A DNA stretch of 20,000 bases from an uncultured virus (IMG/VR IMGVR_UViG_3300037541_000797) (IMGVR_UViG_3300037541_000797), one strand, 5' to 3'. Numbered from the stretch's first letter, positions 2,119 through 20,000 are shown. Made by a program: numbers and translations. Notes: generated by a model from the sequence alone, not told the origin.

Positions 2119-2139
2119 CGATGCGCTACACGGGGAATG

Positions 2140-2242
2140 GTGACGGATTGTTAACTGTCCTGGTAATGGGGCGGCAGGCCTAACGCTACGCGCTACTATT
2201 GGTTCATCGGAGGGGAGGCCCTCCACCACCAACGAGCCAGCA
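2140..2242 (+). promoter_or_regulatory. cassette promoter/leader copy A
   Basis: Upstream box GTGACGGATTGTTAACTG at 2140, -10 TACTAT at 2194-2199, hairpin GGAGGG-GAGG-CCCTCC at 2209-2224, then ACCACCAAC leader and ATG 2243. 33 bp identical to copy B (2178-2210 = 2874-2906). Confidence 0.8.
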
Positions 2243-2386
2243 ATGACCACTATTCAACAGCTTGCCGCCGACCTCTTCGCTCAAGGCATGGGCCGCGACG
2301 AAATGATCTGCTTCATCTACGGCTGCAGCACCTACGCCACCCTGGCCGACATCTACGAAGCGGTTGACGTTGCCATTGCCGCCTGA
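2243..2386 (+). CDS. small acidic protein (47 aa), candidate early/anti-defence gene
   Basis: Read manually: MTTIQQLAADLFAQGMGRDEMICFIYGCSTYATLADIYEAVDVAIAA*. ATG lies directly after the conserved leader. Not in the ORF track. Confidence 0.75.
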   Translation: MTTIQQLAADLFAQGMGRDEMICFIYGCSTYATLADIYEAVDVAIAA

Positions 2387-2441
2387 CCTCCACAGCCTGC
2401 CGGGGGCTTATCCCGGCGAGTAATCCATTGCACTGAAAGCC

Positions 2442-2621
2442 ATGCAAACTTTCAAGATTGAAACACTTACCGCCGACGGATGGAGCGACGATGCCAGCCT
2501 GCTGGGATTCAGTGCCAGCCAAGACGACAACCGCTGGCCATCGCAAGCCGCAGCGCTAGCCGCCTGCGTTGAATTATGCGCGGTACTGGACCCAACCCGC
2601 TTGCGCGTGGTGCAGCTCTAA
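2442..2621 (+). CDS. small acidic protein (59 aa), candidate early/anti-defence gene
   Basis: Read manually: MQTFKIETLTADGWSDDASLLGFSASQDDNRWPSQAAALAACVELCAVLDPTRLRVVQL*. Preceded by a hairpin (GCCGGG..CCCGGC, ~2399-2417) and TGCACTGAA, also found before ATG 2945. TAATG-coupled to the next gene. Confidence 0.75.
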   Translation: MQTFKIETLTADGWSDDASLLGFSASQDDNRWPSQAAALAACVELCAVLDPTRLRVVQL

Positions 2622-2839
2622 TGCCTGATCCCACCAACGCCGACCGCCAGCGCCGCTGGTACGCCCGCCAGAAAGCCGGTACCACCTGGCAGCCGCTTAC
2701 CTGCCAGGCGTGCGGCGCCAACAGCAAAGGCGTCCATGGCGCGTTGTGTTCCCGCTGCTGGGAGAGGCTGACCACAGAGGGCAAAGCGGCTAGGGCGTTG
2801 CGTGTCAGGTTGAGCAGGGCCAGGCGGCGTAGCGTGTGA
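2621..2839 (+). CDS. basic CxxC-CxxC zinc-finger protein, paralog 1 (candidate regulator)
   Basis: MPDPTNADRQRRW...CQACG...CSRCW..LTTEGKAARA.RV. Clear paralog of 14088-14345. TAATG coupling defines the start. Confidence 0.8.
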   Translation: MPDPTNADRQRRWYARQKAGTTWQPLTCQACGANSKGVHGALCSRCWERLTTEGKAARALRVRLSRARRRSV

Positions 2840-2944
2840 CGATATGTGAACTGGCCGCCCTGCCCCCTGCCATGCCTAACGCTACGCGCTACTATTGGTT
2901 CATCGGGGGAAACCCCACACGGCGGCCCAGAGGCTGCACTGAAC
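2836..2944 (+). promoter_or_regulatory. cassette promoter/leader copy B
   Basis: Upstream box GTGACGATATGTGAACTG at 2836, CTGCCA (2867-2872)-N17-TACTAT (2890-2895), hairpin GGGG-GAAA-CCCC at 2905-2916. Confidence 0.8.
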
Positions 2945-3250
2945 ATGGGGGCCACCACTAAGCTGGTGTTTGCTGATGAAGTCGGAAGCCGGGTCGCTGG
3001 TTTCACCGTTCGCAGCGCTGGCACGGTCGAACTGTGCAGCACTGTTGAGCAGCTGCAGGAAATCGGCGCCACAGCATGGGCCACCAGCGTGGAACTGCTG
3101 ATCTGGCTGAGCCGGGCCCCTGAGTTCTGGGCAGATCACGCCACCAGCGCCACCTTCAACGTATGGGATTGGCAGGCCGATCAGGCGCGAGAGGTGACGG
3201 TCCCTCGCAAGGGATGCGAAACACCGTTTGACCGCTGGCAGCTGGTCTGA
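2945..3250 (+). CDS. hypothetical protein (101 aa) under cassette promoter B
   Basis: ATG 2945 follows the promoter/leader and is in frame with track ORF 2846-3250. A terminator follows. Confidence 0.7.
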   Translation: MGATTKLVFADEVGSRVAGFTVRSAGTVELCSTVEQLQEIGATAWATSVELLIWLSRAPEFWADHATSATFNVWDWQADQAREVTVPRKGCETPFDRWQLV

Positions 3251-3258
3251 ACCCTACC

Positions 3259-3282
3259 GCCCCGGCTACCACCGGGGCTTTT
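3259..3282 (+). terminator. Rho-independent terminator
   Basis: GCCCCGG-CTACCA-CCGGGGC followed by TTTT, 8 nt after the stop at 3250. Confidence 0.7.
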
Positions 3283-3674
3283 CATGGCCTGACCAGATTG
3301 CGACGATATGTGAACTGGCCGCCCTCCAGCGCCAGGGTTCTTTCTGGATCCTGGACGACATGGAGACCGCCACTGTTATTGCCCGCCACCCACTCCAGCA
3401 ACCGCTGCTCCCTGAAGGCTGTCCAGCCAATCCGTGGCCGCCACCATTGCAAAACCTCCTGGCTCCCCTTGCTTCCGTTGCAGGCCAGGCAGGCCGGTAC
3501 GCAGTTTTCACGAACTGTGGGGCCGCCCTGGCTGCGGGGGATCACGTGATCGAGTGATTGAGCGGTGGCGCCGCAGTAGGCGCATTGCCCGCCCCAAGCT
3601 TCGCGAATGCTGCCATGCCAGCGGCGCCTTGTGACCAGCTCCGTCTCAACGATCTGGGCCTGCATGCGCTGCAA
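3282..3674 (-). CDS. HNH endonuclease (McrA/HNH_5 type)
   Basis: CAYCG...[12 protein letters not shown]...[16 protein letters not shown] is the canonical HNH signature with two CxxC pairs. The start may be ATG 3665. Confidence 0.92.
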
Positions 3675-5230: not shown

Positions 5231-6760
5231 TCAGAGCTCGGCCACCTCGCGCACGATCGCGTCGTAGGCGGCTTGGGCTGCTGGATCCAGCCAGCCGCGC
5301 CTGGGGCACCACACCGGATCGCCTGTGGGCCAGGGGCTGGCGGCCAGGTTCAGCGGATCCTCACCCCCCAGCCCCTGGCGGGGCACGGATTGGGGCAACT
5401 GTTTGCGCTCCATCAGCGGGTAATCGCGAGGGCTGAGGCGCTCATCACCCGCACCACCCACCGGCCGCAATTTGGCACCCTTGCCATTGGCCCGGAAGAA
5501 ATGGCCCAGGGTGCTCTTGCTATGGCGCTTGGCCTGGGCCTCCCACCGCTCGGCTGGTTTATCCGCCAGGTCGTTTTCAATTGCCAGCGATTCCAGGCTC
5601 ACCGGTGTTTCCTGGCAGCGGCAGTTGGGATGAATCGGGCTCTTTACTGAGCCGATGTAGTAAATGCAGCCAGAGCGGGGGGCGCAGAACTCACAGGTGC
5701 GCTCATCCAAGGTGGCCAGGTATTGCACAAAACCCACCCGCAATTTGCGCCAACAGCGCTCCTGGGCTTCCCCGGAGGCCATCAGGGTTTCGGTGCGGGC
5801 GATGGTTTCCGCCCGATTTTGAAACGCCTCGTTGATCGTCGGGATCCGTTCTTTCAGATTTTTTGCCAGGGTTTTGGAGTCCGGCCCCTGGGCCATTTGG
5901 CGGGCGGTCTCAAACGACACGCTCTCCCCCCACTCGCCCCACCATTTGGCGTAATAGTGTTTCGCCGCGGCCACGTGTTGATCGGTCGCTGCATCCCGCT
6001 CCCGGCGGTAGTTTTCTGATAGGCCTTTGAAATCCCGCTCGGCGGCCACCACCGCCCCGGAGAGATCAAAGAGGCGCGTCAGCCGCTGGCCCCCCTGATA
6101 CTGGCGATCGGGGCCGATGCCAGGGCCTCCGCTCGCCTGGGGCCCTGTGGGTCCGGTGCCCGGAGCTGGGGCGGTGGGCCGCCCGCCGGGGGGGCTGATG
6201 CCACCACCAATCAGAGGCCCCGCTGAAGATCGGGGGGCAGTGCCGGGCAGCGCTGGCGATGCTGGCGCCGCCGGCGCTGCCTCCTGGCCTGGCAGTTGGC
6301 GAATGGTGCCATCGGGATCGAGCTGGGCCATGGCCGGGGCCAGATCTGCCTGAATCAGCTGCAGTCCGTAATTGGTGCCCAGGTCCTGGGCCCGATCGAA
6401 CAGCTGGCGCAGCTCCCCGTTCAATCGCTCCAGCCGCTCGGGGCTGAGCGGCACGGCATTGAGCACCACCATCAAATCTTGAATCAGCTGGGGCTGCAGC
6501 AGCAGCCCTGCCTGGTTTTTTTGCAACGGCTCAATAGGAACCGGCCCTTCTGGTGTGCTGCCCAGAAAGGCGCCGGGGCTGTTGGCGGGGTTGTAGTCGG
6601 GCTGATCGGCAGCCTTCTCCAGCAGCTCAAACACCCGCGCCACGGTATCCCTCAGCGCTGCCTCAAAAATGCGGCCGATGCGCTGGATTGCTGGGTCTTC
6701 CAGGCCCCGCAAAGCCTCGCTGAGCTGTTCGGCCAGCTGTTCGCGGCGATCAATTCCCAT
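5231..6760 (-). CDS. phage head morphogenesis / minor capsid protein (SPP1 gp7 / Mu gpF family)
   Basis: RAETIARTET...DERTCEFCAPRSG...PIHPNCRC motif. Lies directly downstream of and overlaps the portal gene. Confidence 0.9.
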   Translation of the reverse strand: MGIDRREQLAEQLSEALRGLEDPAIQRIGRIFEAALRDTVARVFELLEKAADQPDYNPANSPGAFLGSTPEGPVPIEPLQKNQAGLLLQPQLIQDLMVVLNAVPLSPERLERLNGELRQLFDRAQDLGTNYGLQLIQADLAPAMAQLDPDGTIRQLPGQEAAPAAPASPALPGTAPRSSAGPLIGGGISPPGGRPTAPAPGTGPTGPQASGGPGIGPDRQYQGGQRLTRLFDLSGAVVAAERDFKGLSENYRRERDAATDQHVAAAKHYYAKWWGEWGESVSFETARQMAQGPDSKTLAKNLKERIPTINEAFQNRAETIARTETLMASGEAQERCWRKLRVGFVQYLATLDERTCEFCAPRSGCIYYIGSVKSPIHPNCRCQETPVSLESLAIENDLADKPAERWEAQAKRHSKSTLGHFFRANGKGAKLRPVGGAGDERLSPRDYPLMERKQLPQSVPRQGLGGEDPLNLAASPWPTGDPVWCPRRGWLDPAAQAAYDAIVREVAEL

Positions 6761-8795: not shown

Positions 8796-8904
8796 CTGGG
8801 CCAGGCTAGGCAGCGGCCAGATAAAAACACCTCAGCCACTGCTTCATCCTGCAACCGGGATGGTGCGTCGGTACATTTAGAAGGCGATGCATTGCCAATC
8901 GGCC

Positions 8905-9852
8905 ATGGCTCAACGGCGGCTGCCCACCGTGGTGGACTCGATCCTGAACAGCCTGGAGCATTATCCAGTGCCAACGGCTACAGAACAGATTGAGTACGGA
9001 CGCGCCGTTCGCGCCTGGCAGGACTGGTCCGGAGGCCCGGATGCAGCGCCTCCCCGCGTGAGGCGATTTGGGCTCAGAGGCCGGGAACGTCTGGTGACCG
9101 GCAACCTGCGACTGGTAGTCAACGTGGCCAAAAAATACCAATCACGAGGGATACCACTGGAGGACCTTATCCAGGAGGGCTCGCTGGGCCTGACCACGGC
9201 AGCCGAAAAATACGACCCCGGCAGAGGCTACATGTTTTCCACCTATTCGTATTGGTGGGTAAAGCAGCGGATCGTGCATTATGTAATTGATAAGGCCAGC
9301 CTGATTCGGGTGCCAGGCAGCACGAATGACGACCTGTTCAAGGTCCGGCGACAGCTGGACGGATGTTCCGGGCAGCGCAGCGATAGAGAGCTGTTGGTGG
9401 CGGCCGGGCTCAGGGATCTGCCTGACACCATGGTGCGGATCCGCGATGCAATGCGGGCCAGGGCATGCGGTAGTACTTCGGTACTGCTGCCCAGTGGTGG
9501 CGGCTGCATTGAGGATTTGCAGGCCAGCCCAACAGGTGGGAAGGACGATCAATACGAGGCGCTGGAACGGGCCGAGCGACAGGCACTGGTGTGCAAATTG
9601 CTGGCGGAGCTGCCAGATAACGAACGCCAGGTATGGGAGCTGCGAGTGGTGGAGGAGGTGCCCCGAGTCGAGGTGGCCCAGATCCTGAATATTTCGGTGA
9701 GCGCGGTGGGAGAACTCAAGCGCCGCGCCATAGCTCACCTGCAGGCATTGGTAGCCCAGCAGGATGCCGGCTTGCAGGTGGGCTATGGCGCGGCGCTGGC
9801 TCCAGTGCCGGCAGCCTGCCAGCAATTGCAGCTCTCATTGCTGCCTGGCTAG
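8905..9852 (+). CDS. sigma-70 family RNA polymerase sigma factor (phage-encoded, cyanobacterial-like)
   Basis: Region 2 ERLVTGNLRLVVNVAKKY..RG..LEDLIQEGSLGL..AAEKYDPGRGYMFSTYSYWWVKQRI, region 3 LIRVP, and region 4 HTH LPDNERQV.EL...RVEVAQILNISVSAV. Start taken at MAQRR; ATG 8887 is an alternative. Confidence 0.92.
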   Translation: MAQRRLPTVVDSILNSLEHYPVPTATEQIEYGRAVRAWQDWSGGPDAAPPRVRRFGLRGRERLVTGNLRLVVNVAKKYQSRGIPLEDLIQEGSLGLTTAAEKYDPGRGYMFSTYSYWWVKQRIVHYVIDKASLIRVPGSTNDDLFKVRRQLDGCSGQRSDRELLVAAGLRDLPDTMVRIRDAMRARACGSTSVLLPSGGGCIEDLQASPTGGKDDQYEALERAERQALVCKLLAELPDNERQVWELRVVEEVPRVEVAQILNISVSAVGELKRRAIAHLQALVAQQDAGLQVGYGAALAPVPAACQQLQLSLLPG

Positions 9853-10231
9853 CGGCTTGGCTAGCCAGGCCCGATTCACGTGCCGGACCTGGCTCCGGTA
9901 TCGAGCCCTGCGGCGGCCAGAGCCGGCGGCCAGAGCCAGGGCCCGATTTCGCAGCGACAGCCGGGCAGGTCGATGCCAGCTCCAAAAGCAGCTGGCGCAA
10001 TACAAAATCCACAACACCATGATTGCCGCAGTGACCTGCACCTGACTTGCGCATTGGCAGGGCCAGGCTAGGGAACCCGGTAGCCCCTGGCCAGAAATCG
10101 AACGGCTGACCGTGGTTTATTGGCCAACAAAGCCATCCAAAACCCTGAGCAGCCCCCATTGGCGTCCACCACCAAGAACGGCCAGGCCAAACATTGCGTT
10201 TCGTAAATGAATTTGACCCCACGCCTCGGGG

Positions 10232-10295
10232 TTGCGTTACGGGCGTGTTACCATTTATTCACCGGGGCTGAGGAGCCCCACCACCAACAAAAGAA
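10232..10295 (+). promoter_or_regulatory. cassette promoter/leader copy C
   Basis: CGTTACGGGCGTGT-TACCAT (10249-10254)-TTATTCACC-GGGGCT-GAGG-AGCCCC-ACCACCAAC..ATG 10296. Highly similar to the reverse complement of copies D/E. Confidence 0.8.
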
Positions 10296-10835
10296 ATGAC
10301 CAGTTCCCTCGCCACAAGTTTCCTCGCCACAATTGAAGCCGCTGCGGTCTCTGTCGAGACAGCGGCCAGGGCTTCTGCCCCTCACCTGCAAACGGTTGCC
10401 CGCGCCGATTGGGGCCAGCACCTGAAGGCCGCGGCCGAGCGCACCCTGCCGGTGATCGCCGCCATCTGGCTGGCCGTCGAGCTCGCCGGTGCCCTCGTGC
10501 TGGGCACATGGCAGGCAGGCCGCGCCACCCGCCTGGCGGTGGAGGCCGTCAACAACTGGATGGCCGCCATCGCCGGGGATCTGGCCGATCCCACCCGGCA
10601 CCAGCAGGATGCTGATGTGCCAAGGGCTGAGCAGCCAGCCGAACAGCCAGCCGAACAGCAGCCAACCGCACCAGTGGCGCCCACAGCCCCAGCAGCCCCC
10701 CATCTGCCGGTGTTGGCCCCTGCCCCCCGCCGCCGTGTCTCACTGGCCGGCTGGCTCCAGGCCGATGGCTGGGATGACGACGCCGTGGCCGACCTGGTGC
10801 GCCGCCGCCCGTACCCCCAGGGCATGGCGGCCTGA
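10296..10835 (+). CDS. hypothetical protein with a predicted hydrophobic helix, under cassette promoter C
   Basis: 179-aa ORF starting right after the conserved leader. Hydrophobic stretch LPVIAAIWLAVELAGALVLG and a QPAE/Pro-rich linker. Confidence 0.75.
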   Translation: MTSSLATSFLATIEAAAVSVETAARASAPHLQTVARADWGQHLKAAAERTLPVIAAIWLAVELAGALVLGTWQAGRATRLAVEAVNNWMAAIAGDLADPTRHQQDADVPRAEQPAEQPAEQQPTAPVAPTAPAAPHLPVLAPAPRRRVSLAGWLQADGWDDDAVADLVRRRPYPQGMAA

Positions 10836-10879: not shown

Positions 10880-11195
10880 ATGGCTTCAGCTGTGCCCCTC
10901 CGCATGATTGACACCTTCAGCGGCATTGGAGGCTTCAGCCTCGCCGCTCGCTGGCTGGATAGTTCTGGCCTTTTGGCGACATCTGGATCGCATGACGCCA
11001 GCGGCCTGGGAAGCGGCCGGGGAAGCGGCCTGGGAAGCGGCCGGGGCAGCGGCCGGGGCTTCCCTTGAGATTCAAGGCGCCGTTTTTATGCGTGCAAACA
11101 ATCAGCCGTTTTATTTTTTGCCGCTATTTGGGTTTTCAGATCCAGAGGCTGTCATCGCCGCTACCGTGAATCCCACAACAGCTAAATCATTGTAA
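10880..11195 (+). pseudogene. C5-cytosine methyltransferase N-terminal remnant joined out of frame to the 3' end of an Ala/Trp-repeat gene
   Basis: MASAVPLRMIDTFSGIGGFSLAARWL is Dcm motif I (FxGxGG), with no PC motif afterwards. From ~10960 another frame reads IVLAFWRHLDRMTPAAWEAAGEAAWEAAG...FYFLPLFGF. Confidence 0.7.
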
Positions 11196-13374: not shown

Positions 13375-14028
13375 CTATGCCCCAGTTTGCGGCTTGTCAG
13401 AGGCTGTTGCCTTGGCCTTGGCCTTCACTCCACCGGCAGCTTGCGCGATTACTGCGTGGATCCCCCTGAGATAGATCTCGTCAGCGGAACCCCCCTCGCT
13501 GTTGCAGGCCGTATAGAAAACTGCCTGCAGTTCGCGGTCAAGACCTGTGATGTGGCCGCATCTAGCCGGCAGCGCTGGCTGCCGGCTAGACGCGGCCACG
13601 GCGGCTTGCAGGTCAGCCACCTGGTCGGCGCGTTCGGCATCGGCGTCGGCGTCGGCGGCCCAGTTGGCGGCCCAGTTGGCGGCGTCAACGGCGGCGGCGG
13701 CCAGGTTGGCGGCACAGTTGGCCCAGGTGGCGGCATAGTTGGCCCAGGTGGTGGCGTCGGCGTCGTCGGCGGCGGCGGCGGCGGCGTTGGCGTCGGCGTT
13801 GGCGGCTGACAGCTCAGCCGTCACATCCTCCCCCGCGAGGCGCCGCTGCAGCAGTCCCCGCACGATGGCAGGGTGCGGGCTGTTGGAGCGCTTCTCCAGA
13901 CGCTGGAGCAGTGGAACCAGAAATAGATCTCGACACCGATCCCAGTCGATTGCCGCACCATCCGGCGCCATGATAACTGGAGCGTTCAGGTCACGTTCTA
14001 ACTTTGTGAACCAGACGGGTTTAGTCAT
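13375..14028 (-). CDS. Ala-rich repeat phage protein, probably chimeric
   Basis: AANWAA/ATWANYA/ADAD repeats ending in AERADQVADL, followed by a distinct C-terminal segment (ACNSEGGSADEIYLRGIHAVIA). Confidence 0.75.
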   Translation of the reverse strand: MTKPVWFTKLERDLNAPVIMAPDGAAIDWDRCRDLFLVPLLQRLEKRSNSPHPAIVRGLLQRRLAGEDVTAELSAANADANAAAAAADDADATTWANYAATWANCAANLAAAAVDAANWAANWAADADADAERADQVADLQAAVAASSRQPALPARCGHITGLDRELQAVFYTACNSEGGSADEIYLRGIHAVIAQAAGGVKAKAKATASDKPQTGA

Positions 14029-14087: not shown

Positions 14088-14345
14088 TCAGCGGCGGATG
14101 CAGGGGTTCTGAGTGGCATCGGCCTTGGCCTTGGCCTTGGCCTTGGCCTTGGCGACTCTGGCGGCTCGCTCCGCCCGGCCTTCTGTGGTTTGGCTTTGCC
14201 AACAAAGGCGGCAGAAAGGGCCTTTGGCGCCGGTGTGCCGCTTCCCGCAGCTCTGGCAGGTGGGCCGATCCCGCAACGGCCCCAGCCCCTTCTGACGATC
14301 GCGCCACCGCTGCATCCTGGCCGCGGCCGTGGGGTCAGTGGTCAC
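14088..14345 (-). CDS. basic CxxC-CxxC zinc-finger protein, paralog 2 (candidate Aca-like regulator)
   Basis: DPTAAARMQRWRDRQKG...CQSCG...CRLCW..QTTEGRAERAARV plus an (AK)n tail from a (GCCTTG)n repeat. Starts 18 nt downstream of the AcrIII-1 homolog. Confidence 0.8.
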   Translation of the reverse strand: MTTDPTAAARMQRWRDRQKGLGPLRDRPTCQSCGKRHTGAKGPFCRLCWQSQTTEGRAERAARVAKAKAKAKAKADATQNPCIRR

Positions 14346-14363
14346 CAGTAACCGAGAAAAAAA

Positions 14364-14765
14364 TTAAAAGCCAGGATGACAGCGGACGGCCATTATGTAA
14401 TCCGCCATATATCGATGGTGTGCGTCTAGTGCGGCGCCTAACGTGCCGTGGTAAGTCATTACCAGCCACTCGTACCCCATCTTTTCAATCTCTTCCAGGT
14501 CGAGAACAACGCCTTCTGGCGCACGCCCCTTAAGCTTGAAGCAAAACAGTTTATCGCCTGGCCGTGGGGCGATGGGTACTCGGTTTACGGGGATCCCGAT
14601 ATTTAGCACCTCGCTCATAATTGTGGCTGTACTTTCATGGCCTACGGCCGAGACCCAGTTCTGGGTAAGGTTTACTTTGACCGCCGAGGCGGTGGTCGTT
14701 TGGATTTCCCAAATCCCGTCTCCTCCATTAGGGACAACGGTGGTGGAAAGGAGGTAGTTGGTCAT
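14364..14765 (-). CDS. acrIII-1: DUF1874 / AcrIII-1 family viral ring nuclease (anti-type III CRISPR, cA4-degrading)
   Basis: 133 aa from ATG 14765: SAVGHESTATIMSEVL...VNRVPI....GDKL..FKLKGRAPEGVVLDLEEIEK. H43, R62, R81 and E84 match, with a constant offset of 4, the H47/R66/R85/E88 residues I recall for SIRV1 gp29. Confidence 0.88.
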   Translation of the reverse strand: MTNYLLSTTVVPNGGDGIWEIQTTTASAVKVNLTQNWVSAVGHESTATIMSEVLNIGIPVNRVPIAPRPGDKLFCFKLKGRAPEGVVLDLEEIEKMGYEWLVMTYHGTLGAALDAHHRYMADYIMAVRCHPGF

Positions 14766-14878
14766 GGCTGGCAGTTGGGTGGTGGGGCCCCTCGGCCCCG
14801 GTGAACAAATAGTAGCACGCCCGTAACGGTCTGACAAGGGCAAAGGGGCGCCGCGGCCACCGCCCCCCACCGCCTCCG
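14766..14878 (-). promoter_or_regulatory. cassette promoter/leader copy D (drives acrIII-1)
   Basis: Minus strand: TTGTCA (14832-14837)-N17 with extended TG-TACTAT (14809-14814), hairpin GGGGCC-GAGG-GGCCCC (14784-14799), then ACCACC..CCAGCC-ATG. Confidence 0.85.
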
Positions 14879-14921
14879 ATGGCGTGGGTGGGTGACGACA
14901 AAGAAGAGTGCGCGGATGCCG

Positions 14922-15104
14922 TCAGGCTTCAACAACGCTCAGAGTGCCGCCGCAGCAGATGTCAGCGCGAGCCTTAAGGGCCTTGGCATCAGGGAGGCTG
15001 ACACCTTCTGGAAGGTTGAATGTGAAACACGGCAAATTGGTGTCTGAGTTCCAGCGGATCCAGGTAGGTGTGGGACCGGCGACGGAGACGACGTAAGAGT
15101 TCAT
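14922..15104 (-). CDS. small protein (60 aa) under cassette promoter E, candidate anti-defence gene
   Basis: MNSYVVSVAGPTPTWIRWNSDTNLPCFTFNLPEGVSLPDAKALKARADICCGGTLSVVEA*. ATG is at the same position in the repeat as the acrIII-1 start. Confidence 0.78.
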   Translation of the reverse strand: MNSYVVSVAGPTPTWIRWNSDTNLPCFTFNLPEGVSLPDAKALKARADICCGGTLSVVEA

Positions 15105-15212
15105 GGCTGGTGTTGGTGGTGGGGCCCCTCGGCCCCGGTGAACAAATAGTAGCACGCCCGTAACGATCTGGCAAGGGCGGGGTCGCCGCGGCCACCGCCC
15201 CCACCGCCTCCG
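15105..15212 (-). promoter_or_regulatory. cassette promoter/leader copy E
   Basis: TTGCCA (15169-15174)-N17-TACTAT (15146-15151), hairpin at 15121-15136. 51 bp identical to copy D (15115-15165 = 14778-14828) within a ~115-bp direct repeat. Confidence 0.85.
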
Positions 15213-15223
15213 CTGGCTGCGGC

Positions 15224-15964
15224 CTATGCCCTGGGCTGCCGGCGCTGGCGCTGGCGTTCTCCACGGTCGAGGTAGGCCTCGATCACCAGTGCCAGCCGGC
15301 CGGTCAGCTCCGCCGGCTCGGGCAGGGCGGCGGCAAGCTGCACCAGCAGGGAGCCAAACCGATCGAACTCCGCCTGGGTTGCGAACTGCAGCTTGATCTC
15401 AAGCCCTGAATTGGGCTTGCTGGGGGGGGGCGGCGGCTCCGTCTCATCCTCATCCACCTGGTCACCGGCCACCAGCGCGGCAAATTCCTCCTCGGAAAAC
15501 CAGGGGGAGACGTCCAGCTGGGCATCCTCCTCCACCAGCTGGGCAAGCATCGCCCCGTCAAATTCAGATGTGTCGCTGGTGCGGTTGTCGGCCAGGGCCA
15601 GGCTGGTTTTTTCGGTTTCACTCAGATCGAACCGTTGGACGGCAATCAGGGTGTTCCCATCGCTGGGGATGAACAAAACCCTGTCTATGCCTGCATTTAT
15701 GGCCGCTTCCGCCGTGCCGTTGCCGGCCACCACCCGGCCGTTTTCATCCACCACGATCGAGCGGGCAGCGCCAAACTCCTCCATCGAGCGGGCCAACATG
15801 TCGCGAGAACGGGGCGTGCGCCGGCGGGCATTTTTTCGATCTGGTATCAGCTTGCTGATCGGCAGTAAAGCCGCCCTGGGGCTGGAGTCTGGGCCGCCCT
15901 GGGCGGGGGCTGTGGGCACGATTTCCGCCGTCAATGCGGCGGAAGATGGGCGCTTGGGAGGCAT
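15224..15964 (-). CDS. ParB/Srx N-terminal domain protein
   Basis: PISKLIPDRKNAR...SMEEFG..RSIVVDENGRVVAGNGT.EAA...LALADNRTSD, typical of phage ParB-N proteins found near terminase genes. Confidence 0.88.
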   Translation of the reverse strand: MPPKRPSSAALTAEIVPTAPAQGGPDSSPRAALLPISKLIPDRKNARRRTPRSRDMLARSMEEFGAARSIVVDENGRVVAGNGTAEAAINAGIDRVLFIPSDGNTLIAVQRFDLSETEKTSLALADNRTSDTSEFDGAMLAQLVEEDAQLDVSPWFSEEEFAALVAGDQVDEDETEPPPPPSKPNSGLEIKLQFATQAEFDRFGSLLVQLAAALPEPAELTGRLALVIEAYLDRGERQRQRRQPRA

Positions 15965-15971
15965 TTGGGGT

Positions 15972-16019
15972 TGGGTCGAAAACGCACCTCAAGATTGCTT
16001 GACTGCCGTTTTCGACCCA
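15972..16019. other. putative attP site of the serine integrase
   Basis: Perfect 13-bp outer arms TGGGTCGAAAACG/CGTTTTCGACCCA and inner arms TCAAG/CTTGA, all symmetric about a central TT (15995-15996). Spans 48 bp and ends 7 bp before the integrase ATG. Confidence 0.8.
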
Positions 16020-16026
16020 GGCACCA

Positions 16027-17382
16027 ATGGACCGTGTAGGCCGGCTAATCGTTGGGTATGTGCGCGTTAGCACCGGCAAGGAGGCGCAAGACACCTCCGT
16101 AGAGGGGCAGCAATGGGACATGCAGCAGGCTGGCTGCGATCGCGTGATCGTGGAACGCGGGAGCGCTTACTCAGGCCAGCGGCGGCCGGGGTGGGAAGAA
16201 TTAAGGGCCCTGGTGGCCAAGGGGCTGGTGGCCAAGGTACTGGTGGTAGACCTGTCGCGATTGGCACGAGACGGATCTGATCAGGATTTTCTAGAGGAAT
16301 GCCATTGCGCCGGCTGCACGGTCGCTGATCTGCAGGGGATGGTGCTGGAGAACCAAACGGTGAGTGGGCTCGCTCTTACCGGGGTGATGAGCGTGATGAA
16401 TCGCGTGACCTCCCGCATGATCAGCATCAAGGTGCGCGATGGCATCCGGCGGCGGCGGGAGGCAGGTTATGCAGGCAGGGGGCCTGTGCCGTTTGGCTAT
16501 GCCCACGTTGACGGGCAGGTTGTGCCATCACCTGTTACCTGGACTGCAGCCAGGCAGTTGGTTGAATTGATCATTCAGCACGAATGCAATATCTACGCAA
16601 CACTGAAGGCCCTGCCTGCTGATTTCCCGAGGCAATACTCATCTCACGGTTTAACCGGTTGGCTGCACAATCCGATTTTGCGCGGCGGACTGGGCCGGGG
16701 GGCCCCCAGCGGCACGCAGGACTACACAGAAATTGAATGGGGTCGCACCACTCCGCTGATCTCACCGGCTGAATGGACGCTGATCAAACGCCAACTGGAA
16801 ACCCGCAGCCAGGGCCCAATGCAACGAGCCGCCAGCGTTAGGCATTTATTTAGCGGCCTGATTCGTTGCGAGGGGTGCGGTAAAAATTTGCAATGGCATC
16901 AAAAACCAAATGTTCACGGCCCCGGCGTGGCGCGATATGCCTGCAAACGCCCCGGTTGCTGTTACGTGGGGAAGGGGGTTCGAGAAGACACGCTGCGATC
17001 GGCAGTAATTGATGTGTTGGTGCGCCGTGCTGCGCGGCGCATGGCCCGGTTGGCGCTTGAGGGAGCCGAACCACCAGAAGTGGGTTGCCCTGAGCTGCTG
17101 ACTTACCGCGAGCAGTTGGCGCAATTGGAGCAGCTGCAGGACCAGGGGGTGACGGGGCTAGGAACCTCAATCGTTCGTCTCCGAGATCAAATCATCACGA
17201 TGCAGGCGTTGCCAGCGGAAGCCTGGCCTGGCCTTTACGAAAACCTGTTCCGCTCCCCAGACGCGCTAAGCCACGCCACTGATGAACTGCTGCGCCCAGT
17301 GTTTTTGCATTTTGTATCAGAGATTTTGTACCAAGGCGGCCCCAATTCGTTCAAGATCAAATTGCGATCGCGGCTTAGCTAG
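16027..17382 (+). CDS. large serine recombinase (phage integrase; XisF-like)
   Basis: GYVRVST catalytic serine motif, RPGW..L, DLSRLAR, recombinase domain PFGY, zinc ribbon LFSGLIRCEGCG...YACKRPGC and a coiled coil. Confidence 0.95.
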   Translation: MDRVGRLIVGYVRVSTGKEAQDTSVEGQQWDMQQAGCDRVIVERGSAYSGQRRPGWEELRALVAKGLVAKVLVVDLSRLARDGSDQDFLEECHCAGCTVADLQGMVLENQTVSGLALTGVMSVMNRVTSRMISIKVRDGIRRRREAGYAGRGPVPFGYAHVDGQVVPSPVTWTAARQLVELIIQHECNIYATLKALPADFPRQYSSHGLTGWLHNPILRGGLGRGAPSGTQDYTEIEWGRTTPLISPAEWTLIKRQLETRSQGPMQRAASVRHLFSGLIRCEGCGKNLQWHQKPNVHGPGVARYACKRPGCCYVGKGVREDTLRSAVIDVLVRRAARRMARLALEGAEPPEVGCPELLTYREQLAQLEQLQDQGVTGLGTSIVRLRDQIITMQALPAEAWPGLYENLFRSPDALSHATDELLRPVFLHFVSEILYQGGPNSFKIKLRSRLS

Positions 17383-19098: not shown

Positions 19099-20000
19099 CG
19101 GGGCCTCCATCCTCGGGTTTGAACAGGTTGTTGAGCCGAGCCATGGTTTGCTGGCGGCGGCTGGGTTGACCGGGGTTCGGTCTGCGCGAATCATACATCC
19201 TGTTTTCGGGATGAAGGCCCCCACCGGGAAAATCGGCTCGGGGGTTGGTGGCCAGCTGGTGAGCCGCGGCCAGGCGCTCGATTGCCTCAGCTCTGCCGGC
19301 GTGGTCAAGGGATTGCCAACCGGCCATCTCGCCCTTGTGCAGGTAGGCCCGCAGCACGCCCCGATCTGCGGCGGCGGCGATGGCCGCCAAGTTGCCGGCG
19401 CCCAATTTGGTGCAATTGGCCCTGGGGTGTTTTTCGCAGCGCAGCTGCCACCAGGCCGTGAGCACCTCCAGCTCAGCTGGCTCCAGCGGCGGAGCATCGG
19501 GGGGCAGCGGCACCGGCCCGGCTGGCTTGCGGCCTTTGCGGGTCGGCTTGGCGGCTGCAGGGGGGCTGCAGGGGGCTGCCGGCTCCATGTGCCCGGCGAT
19601 GGGTCCGGCGGCCTCCTGGGGCCCCGCCAGGGGGCTGCTCAGCGCCATTGGGGCAGCAATGGGCGCCAATGGGTTTGGGCATGGCGCTGCAAGCGCCTGG
19701 GGCTCGATGGCCGCAGCCGGCGGTTCCAGGGGCTGGGCGATGGCCGTTGGCTGCATTGCGGCGGGCTCTGGCGCTGCTGGCGGCTTTGGGGCTGTTGGCG
19801 CTGGCTTCGGATCGGGTCCAACCGTTGCCAACGGCTCCGCCGGATCAATGGGGGTAAGGGGGTCTTTCTCTTGGATTTCTTCTTTTCTTGTTAAAGCTTC
19901 TTGTTTGTGTGCCAAATCTGGCACTACCCCAGTGCCAGATTTGGCACTACCCCCAGTGCCAGATTTGGCACAACCCCCAGTGCCCGAATTTGCACAACCC
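19085..20000 (-). CDS. phage replication initiator (lambda O-like), 5' end outside the window
   Basis: The frame stays open to the window edge (..GCANSGTGGCAKSGTGGSAKSGTGVVPDLAHKQE..). Contains iterons, a purine-rich tract, a Pro/Ala linker and a C-terminal domain with W..LR..K...GWQSL. Confidence 0.75.
   Translation of the reverse strand, partial: GCANSGTGGCAKSGTGGSAKSGTGVVPDLAHKQEALTRKEEIQEKDPLTPIDPAEPLATVGPDPKPAPTAPKPPAAPEPAAMQPTAIAQPLEPPAAAIEPQALAAPCPNPLAPIAAPMALSSPLAGPQEAAGPIAGHMEPAAPCSPPAAAKPTRKGRKPAGPVPLPPDAPPLEPAELEVLTAWWQLRCEKHPRANCTKLGAGNLAAIAAAADRGVLRAYLHKGEMAGWQSLDHAGRAEAIERLAAAHQLATNPRADFPGGGLHPENRMYDSRRPNPGQPSRRQQTMARLNNLFKPEDGGPDDHP
19862..19995. repeat. replication origin: palindromic iterons plus A-rich (minus strand) unwinding tract
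   Basis: 16-bp quasi-palindrome GTGCCAGATTTGGCAC at 19932 and 19956, inverted at 19909 and degenerate at 19980 (23-24 bp period). Adjacent T/C-rich tract at 19862-19906. Confidence 0.85.

Follow-up and report, generated by a model that had tools for sequence, protein, structure and literature searches.

Why should a phage carry two small genes, one of them a homolog of AcrIII-1, a ring nuclease found in viruses, each behind its own copy of the same promoter-like repeat, and why does a zinc-finger gene close the run? The question is raised by positions 14088-15218 of a 20,000-nucleotide stretch from an uncultured virus (IMGVR_UViG_3300037541_000797), referred to here as the window. A preliminary description had taken the locus for a tandem array of promoter-repeat cassettes. 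Our own reading, to which we give slightly better than an even chance, is that of an acr-aca-like, cargo-swapping accessory-gene operon of a temperate freshwater Synechococcaceae phage.

On the minus strand, two direct repeats (about 14762-14884 and 15101-15218) align over 115 nt at 90.8% (BLAST). Their longest exact match is 51 bp, starting at 14778 and 15115 with an offset of 337, and the alignment thus confirms the two ~115-bp repeats, the 51 bp of identity and the 337-bp distance first described. Each repeat, here termed a header, contains TTG(C/T)CA-N17-TACTAT (15174-15146; 14837-14809), a hairpin with a 6-bp stem and the ATG of a small gene, again as originally proposed. In header copy 1 (15101-15218) a -35 box, TTGCCA (15174-15169), is followed by a CGT-T-ACG palindrome (15165-15159), a -10 box, TACTAT (15151-15146), a putative 5'-UTR hairpin (15136-15121), a C/A-rich leader and, at 15104, the ATG of a 60-aa cargo protein (14922-15104, minus strand). 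Header copy 2 (14762-14884) has TTGTCA at 14837-14832, the palindrome at 14828-14822, the -10 box at 14814-14809, the hairpin at 14799-14784 and, at 14765, the ATG of the DUF1874/AcrIII-1 homolog (133 aa; 14364-14765, minus strand). The zinc-finger gene, ZnF-1 (14088-14345), starts 18 nt after the acrIII-1 stop on the same strand. In the window as a whole, sites with a promoter-like consensus are not above chance (6, versus 4.3 +/- 2.0 in shuffles).

Contigs of runs X5, X6 and X8, none of them marked as the source, cover the tandem, and one X6 contig spans 14799-15165; thus the tandem does not stem from faulty assembly of a single sample. Neither a 337-bp circle joint nor a deletion joint was found in the contigs of four runs, contigs being prone to drop rare variants. 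In run X10, ParB with its header and the ZnF are at a depth of about 20 and the two cargo genes are little covered; no contig bridges the slot, and one joins the ZnF to 793 nt of different upstream sequence.

A search with the ParB-like gene that borders the locus upstream (15224-15964, minus strand) gave four loci: the window phage itself (L002, 99.95% over 10,380 nt) and three relatives, L003, L004 and L005, with ParB identities of 98, 82 and 81%. All three relatives show ParB, one header, unrelated small genes and then the ZnF, which is 95, 80 and 80% identical, respectively. The cargo in the slot consists of genes for 92, 130 and 113 aa in L003, of a gene for 81 aa in L004 and of another for 81 aa in L005; neither AcrIII-1 nor the 60-aa gene occurs in any of the three. 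This comparison of gene content had been set beforehand, and each of the three non-identical relatives carries other small genes in the slot. Because all three keep ParB, one header and the ZnF around different cargo, the locus is, judged on gene order, a variable slot with fixed ParB, header and ZnF, and the tandem is private to the window phage. The term "tandem array" is therefore apt in that two copies are real, but there are just two, and the relatives have one copy there. Similarly, repeated headers and variable small genes are real, but the "cassettes" belong to a dispersed header family, and one of its members stands before a gene kept in four of four close phages.

Header copy 2 agrees in its upstream part with the header next to ParB in L003, and has its leader and first codons in common with L004. 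Cargo has probably been exchanged through recombination events within the header and the first codons; the tandem may have arisen when one header-cargo unit inserted beside another. A second variable slot lies after ZnF-1, where an Ala-rich ORF of 217 aa (13375-14028, minus strand) is missing in all three close relatives. The stretch between a 179-aa gene and TerL (10880-11195, plus strand) is another: in the window a cytosine methyltransferase-like gene is reduced to its first codons, followed by low-complexity sequence, and the counterpart in L005 is a 327-aa ORF that shares the methyltransferase-like start. In the variable slot adjoining TerL, L005 also has a phage ORF with a RyR domain (5455-6162, minus strand; PF02026, E 1.6e-11).

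The window encodes ThyX, an HNH protein, a methyltransferase, minor head and portal proteins, a sigma factor, TerL, the ParB-like protein and a large serine recombinase (16027-17382, plus strand). From this gene content the source looks like a temperate tailed phage of non-T4 type, temperate because a serine recombinase is encoded. The sole match to the ZnF family in the genome collection was a contig of a Synechococcaceae MAG, itself with three headers, and related contigs come from lake and freshwater metagenomes. By sequence the relatives fall in the Synechococcaceae, and the host of the window phage itself can be placed, presumptively, at family level. With the recombinase present and the relatives so placed, the label "temperate cyanophage" of the preliminary description is supported. 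Two further features may be mentioned: an imperfect inverted repeat (15962-16029) between the divergent ParB-like and recombinase genes, possibly an operator or attachment site, and, in the last stretch of the window (19909-19998), direct repeats of 24 nt, three to four in number, that lie upstream of a replication-initiator-like ORF and are iteron-like.

By profile there are five header copies in the window, and the family extends over dozens of related freshwater phage contigs. Three of the five are additional to those described earlier: copy 3 (10191-10294, plus strand), copy 4 (2137-2244, plus strand) and copy 5 (~2835-2912, plus strand; about 2835-2944 if taken up to the ORF that it heads). 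Copy 3 shares the CGTTACGG core and heads a conserved hydrophobic ORF of 179 aa (10296-10835, plus strand), which is convergent with TerL, has no assigned function and is header-preceded in four of four close phages; an ORF resembling it lies, by eye, between acrIII-1 and the ZnF in L207. In genome-wide checks, made on virus records G003 and G004, a pattern search found four and three headers, respectively. The exact header pattern had no match in metagenome contigs. The family motif was matched 33 times in 233,876 bp of the window and its relatives, versus 0-1 times in five Markov resamples.

Profile matches to the header numbered 188 (redundant loci included), and were reduced to 68 unique and 53 non-redundant copies. 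The order conserved among these is an upstream box resembling a direct repeat (39/53, about 45-60 nt before the -10 end), then CGT-W-ACG, then TACNRT, then a GC hairpin. The exact CGT-W-ACG motif, part of which was forced by the anchoring pattern, is found in 41 of the 53 copies, in the spacer between the -35 and -10 positions; its leading CG (0.92 and 0.98) and the hairpin were unforced. All three CGT-W-ACG 7-mers of the window are inside headers.

The hairpin folds at -10.7 kcal/mol, compared with -5.7 in shuffles, has a GNRA loop in 24/53 copies, shows two-sided compensatory changes in three of four consensus pairs (36-copy alignment) and ends a median of 19 nt before the next ATG. The preliminary description had compared the repeats with the promoter/stem-loop (PeSL) units of T4-type phages, in which the stem-loop acts as a terminator or attenuator. 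A terminator of that type looks improbable here: a T-tract follows the stem in 0/53 copies in the sense direction (9/53 in antisense), and the hairpin lies after the -10 box. It would thus be a 5'-UTR hairpin rather than a terminator. Asymmetry of G-U pairs (19/315 sense pairs, 51/365 antisense) did not separate the strands. A second repeat, the intergenic "linker" hairpin (31 unique copies), is found between cargo genes, 9-19 nt after a stop-like triplet; for this linker the role of a terminator was rejected, with a T-tract in 1/31. At the gathering score, Rfam covariance models gave no match in the window for header or linker hairpins, and across four sources just one tRNA (L092). An integron was also rejected, there being no integron integrase in the window and, by eye, no hairpin of attC-like size.

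Which polymerase reads the header, and when, bears directly on the proposed function. A -35 box of the TTGYCA/TTGCAA type is present in just 9/53 headers, far fewer than have the upstream box, and the phage encodes a sigma-70-family factor (8887-9852, plus strand) as a candidate rival reader. Furthermore, operon and terminase genes run in one direction: the operon leads into a probable terS and terL, and no site resembling a terminator comes before 12848, which makes a strong early promoter awkward and speaks against the acr-aca-like reading. The header might then be a promoter of the middle or late class that the phage sigma factor reads, or one that needs activation by the ZnF or by a host response regulator; AcrIII-1 would either be made too late for the protection of incoming DNA or act only at induction. 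HLR1 activating sites 50-100 nt upstream of start sites, reported in the available text of PMC11633204, would suit the activator variant, but by eye the upstream box is a poor match to the HLR1 consensus, its second half being off, and was rejected as an HLR1/RpaB site. Header copies 1 and 2, moreover, have no upstream box, and their -35 is near consensus, with a 17-nt spacer and a TG-extended -10. A middle or late promoter is, in our view, rather improbable.

The fixed end of the slot, ZnF-1, consists of a basic helix, a C-x2-C...C-x2-C-W arrangement and a second basic helix, with 21 K+R and 6 D+E. Within its family, which comprises 120 clusters at 50% identity, an Arg of the first helix and the Cys pairs are invariant. 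The predicted model (pLDDT 82) has a helix, a Cys knuckle and further helices. Pfam gave weak zinc-ribbon matches only, with no HTH or RHH domain; the best match in a fold search (Z 3.7) covered helices only, matches in the Atlas were to unnamed viral clusters only, and a homodimer prediction (score 0.00) gave no answer. The protein presumably binds DNA.

The linkage of ZnF and header was seen from both sides. A ZnF lies downstream on the same strand in 22/28 header-found contigs, 14 of these 22 being absent from the ZnF search, and the six contigs without a ZnF all end within 595 bp downstream, so that the count for untruncated contigs is 22/22. The ZnF search gave 28 loci, or 26 after two from the window phage itself were dropped; a header is upstream of the ZnF in 23/26, and in 13/26 the next header overlaps the ZnF stop, as at 2836-2851 in the window, counts to be read with the header patterns having been derived from ZnF-bearing loci and many contigs being near-identical strains. 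The distances among ZnFs and among headers are correlated (Mantel rho 0.41, p 0.007, n 15), as linkage alone would also produce. Among 401 host-family genomes, 11 have more distant ZnF matches, with a header in two, a variant repeat in one and neither in eight. What had been noted as a zinc-finger gene following the cassettes is indeed a C4 zinc-finger-like ORF, but it appears as a conserved anchor and not as a follower or a further cassette.

A second, fuller array lies at 2137-3557 (plus strand). Here header copy 4 (upstream box 2140-2155, CCTAACG core, hairpin 2209-2224) is followed by cargo ORFs of 47 and 59 aa (2243-2621) with a linker hairpin between them (2399-2417), and then by a paralog, ZnF-2 (2621-2839), which is 43% identical to ZnF-1 and has its stop codon inside the upstream box (2836-2851) of header copy 5. 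This header (CCTAACG core, hairpin 2905-2916) heads an ORF of 101 aa (2945-3250), and a lone upstream box is found at the end of the array (3300-3315). The headers of this array thus have CCTAACG in place of CGTTACG and are paired with a different ZnF paralog; the same is seen in L036 and L042. No match to ZnF-2 was found among 50,697 annotated phage records.

Dispersed headers of the same genome differ at 1.0 of 20 nt (11 pairs), those of two phage clades at 3.8 (30 pairs). Such homogenisation within genomes might result from a homing-like process, in which the ZnF targets the headers, an HNH nuclease cuts at or near them and gene conversion replaces the cargo. Among 18 longer ZnF proteins scanned, one is fused to an HTH and one to an HNH domain; the latter (P0069, one of the 120 clusters) shares 46% identity over 63 aa with the HNH protein of the window (3282-3674, minus strand). 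But the fusion is single, the window HNH gene is on the opposite strand, and among the loci fetched by then this HNH was near arrays just in the window phage, L036 and L043. We consider homing very improbable.

As for the cargo, the assignment of the 133-aa gene to DUF1874/AcrIII-1 proved sound. The protein matches PF08960 (E 1.3e-22, 80.2 bits, cut-off 26) and, in the PDB, 2j6b (E 4.4e-17) as well as 2x4i, 2j85 and 6scf. Structure 2x4i is, we presume, SIRV1 gp29, and in its alignment the reference residues His47, Ser49, Thr50, Arg66, Ile69 and Arg85 correspond to H43, S45, T46, R62, I65 and R81; the reference residues N8, S11 and N13 are outside this alignment. The available part of 10.1101/778746 lists His47 as catalytic and S49, T50, R66, I69 and R85 as contacts of cA4. 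H43, S45, T46, R62 and R81 are invariant in 12/12 members of the subfamily. The homolog thus resembles the AcrIII-1/DUF1874/Crn2 reference (SIRV1 gp29, as presented in the same part of 10.1101/778746) in its PF08960 score and in keeping the catalytic His and the cA4-contacting Ser, Thr and Arg. It differs in belonging to a 133-aa subfamily with about 30 extra C-terminal residues and in having Lys at the position of Gln81; position 7 is Ser, where 7/12 subfamily members have Asn. Judged on these residues, the protein looks intact.

AcrIII-1 genes occur three times in arrays with headers or linkers and a ZnF, namely in the window, in L098/L099 (53% identity) and in L207 (45%), with the ZnF downstream of acrIII-1 also in L099 and L207; the three fall into separate sublineages of a 43-row tree. 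Linkers alone flank AcrIII-1 in L217 and, by eye, in L225. A ZnF is near other AcrIII-1 relatives in 1/79 metagenome loci (short, median 2.2 kb) and 0/13 other viral loci. In L096 the AcrIII-1 homolog is preceded by a ZnF-like ORF and an upstream-box-like sequence, and an ArdC-type zincin domain (PF18818; 244-768, plus strand) is encoded 2 kb upstream. Another AcrIII-1 sublineage (L214-L216, at about 2900-3000, L097 and L100-L102) is found in phages of 49% GC, with shuffled neighbours and behind a different repeated promoter-like leader. No report of AcrIII-1 in a cyanophage was found in the literature searched, subscription papers excepted.

Would there be a target for such a protein in the host family? 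Cas10-like matches were found in 15/401 host-family genomes, one of them over the cut-off. The four type III loci that were fetched from the family are all III-B, with Csx1-type CARF-HEPN effectors in three and SAVED in one. Csx1 effectors use cA4. DUF1874 itself is encoded in 6/401 of these genomes, four of which are Cas10-positive; L208-L211 are such DUF1874 (Crn2-like) genes from Cas10-positive genomes, and L208 and L209 are about 40% identical to the phage protein. On these searches, the host family does contain a type III target, though not a common one.

The 60-aa protein, initially described as a small protein of unknown nature, represents a real family with no assignable function. There are 13 other clusters at the 90% level (59-82% identity), and homologs in the three other viral loci all lie within header/ZnF arrays, after a header in L093 and after a linker in L092 and L094; distant members occur in three more, making the protein a recurring cargo. 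It was modelled with confidence (pLDDT 90) as a beta-beta-beta-alpha-beta fold, and has no Pfam, PHROG or NCBIfam family. Foldseek found nothing at E<=0.001 in PDB or BFVD, with a best value of 0.79 in the ESM Atlas. Fold matches by VIA (best Z 3.7), among which ClpS, pilins and a 70-residue chain of type I-C CRISPR were tied below Z 4, were rejected as noise. From its gene position alone, the protein is a candidate anti-defence protein.

Heuristic ORF calling on the arrays produced 253 ORFs, grouped into 141 clusters, spurious frames included. First ORFs behind headers comprise 79 unique sequences in 53 clusters, with a median of 84 aa. For family scans 89 cargo ORFs were picked by hand, the ZnF, likely spurious frames and long downstream genes being left out; just one, the AcrIII-1 of the window, belongs to a known anti-defence family, one is a GIY-YIG protein and the others are unnamed or unmatched. 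NCBIfam applied to 98 ORFs gave a lone GIY-YIG-like match and missed AcrIII-1 itself, and is thus uninformative for anti-defence.

The single known anti-defence gene in 89 speaks for a generic PeSL-like early or accessory region, whose host-read promoters double as recombination seams and whose cargo is a mixture of host-takeover and adaptive genes, with AcrIII-1 as a passenger and the ZnF merely linked. The header before the conserved 179-aa gene and the distant ZnF homologs, mostly without header, point in the same direction, and copy homogenisation can be explained by gene conversion. However, plain shuffling needs neither a conserved palindrome in the spacer nor a ZnF that ends the run in every untruncated contig, and AcrIII-1 recurs in three divergent arrays. 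We hold a generic region of this kind to be unlikely, though well worth keeping in mind.

The acr-aca-like reading can now be stated more fully. By sequence, a conserved header heads small variable genes, the run ends in a conserved ZnF and relatives swap the genes between; in the window, the slot holds an intact-looking AcrIII-1 and a 60-aa gene, each behind its own header. Host RNA polymerase would fire the header on infection or induction, and the hairpin would form the 5' end of the mRNA, as a stabiliser or protein-binding site. AcrIII-1 would degrade cA4 and thereby blunt host type III-B CRISPR. Cargo might be exchanged by homologous recombination between conserved flanks, the header with first codons on one side and a linker or the ZnF on the other. 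Least certain, and in our estimate somewhat short of an even chance, is the step in which the ZnF would bind the CGT-W-ACG palindrome and control its own and the dispersed headers. We count in favour of the acr-aca-like reading the variation of the slot, the linkage of the ZnF, the palindrome, the hairpin, the homogeneity of headers, the three AcrIII-1 arrays and the III-B loci. Against it we count the scarcity of known anti-defence cargo, the occurrence of AcrIII-1 mostly outside arrays, the mostly headerless distant ZnFs, the few genomes with Cas10-like matches and the case of SIRV2 gp37, which, according to the available part of 10.1101/2023.01.10.523387, does not act as an Acr where it is natively expressed, in a middle/late context.

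Since the layout, with a promoter palindrome, a 5'-UTR hairpin, intergenic hairpins and the regulator last, parallels that of acr-aca operons, the ZnF, the fixed element of the slot, can be regarded as a candidate zinc-finger Aca. It is outside the described Aca families, which has no bearing on an Aca-like function. A bolder version, in which it is the first zinc-finger Aca, reads CGT-W-ACG and perhaps the 5'-UTR or linker hairpins and times a genome-wide regulon of shuffled anti-defence cassettes in temperate freshwater picocyanobacterial phages, is conceivable but seems to us doubtful. No report combining Aca, zinc finger and cyanophage was found in the literature searched, again with subscription papers excepted. 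The 2026 Aca study (PMC13551039) asks, in its available text, whether zinc-finger domains can regulate acr operons, and for that question the window locus supplies an actual protein to work with, together with a 7-bp site and a reporter. If the bolder version is true, the header would be a bait for >50 candidate anti-defence families, including the 60-aa protein. In any case, the header leads to a set of small orphan genes that could be screened for anti-defence functions, few of which are known in the host group. The accessible parts of 10.1101/2023.01.10.523387 and PMC11065993 describe an acr gene directly behind a promoter as needed, and mostly missing, for viral ring nucleases as real Acrs; AcrIII-1 directly behind a promoter-like header is that configuration.

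Among known systems, the closest parallels are with acr-aca operons and the multi-operon regulons of Aca1, Aca2 and Aca14, as presented in the same text of PMC13551039. Shared features are an acr gene first and a small putative DNA-binding gene last, a promoter palindrome, intergenic hairpins, the same motif before operons without a regulator, a 5'-UTR hairpin whose end is about 20 nt from the start codon, as in the Aca1 RNA motif, and a helicase gene after the regulator, found here in two loci (L041, L049). In contrast, the candidate regulator is here a basic-helix C4 zinc finger and not an HTH or RHH protein, the palindrome, a putative operator, is just 7 bp, and most cargo is unrecognised. 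The PeSL cassettes of the T4-type phages RB49 and phi1, as far as PMC2839356 was available, likewise consist of repeats of about 100 bp with a sigma-70-like promoter and a GC hairpin before orphan genes, with gain, loss and replacement of genes at the repeats and with two-copy and one-copy forms in relatives. They differ in number, with about 50 copies there and few dispersed ones here (four in G003 by pattern, two variant ones in the window). Furthermore, the hairpin here comes after the -10 box and has no U-tract, a conserved palindrome and a linked ZnF are present, no mini-circle was seen in contigs, and the phage is not a T4-type lytic myovirus, its serine recombinase, ParB, portal, minor head protein and TerL being those of a temperate phage outside the T4 type.

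The CUP-controlled regulon of IncN plasmids with ArdK and the Reg576 establishment genes, in the portions of PMC5371602 and PMC6294495 at hand, are similar in that conserved repeats holding promoter and operator stand upstream of several operons, in their establishment and anti-restriction genes and in recombination between repeats. They are plasmid-borne and not phage-borne, the repeat here is shorter, the regulator has a different fold and regulation is putative. In archaeal viral anti-defence genes with Aca8, which share an early regulatory sequence, as given in the available part of PMC11065993, small genes, an Acr among them, are marked by a promoter motif that is virus-specific and repeated and can serve as bait for further anti-defence genes. 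The promoter here is bacterial, and acrIII-1, rarely found with the motif there (0.13), is here directly behind it. Repeated promoter cassettes and AcrIII-1 are thus already known kinds; new is the combination of both in a temperate picocyanobacterial phage family, together with a zinc-finger gene that is tightly linked and stands where an aca gene would.
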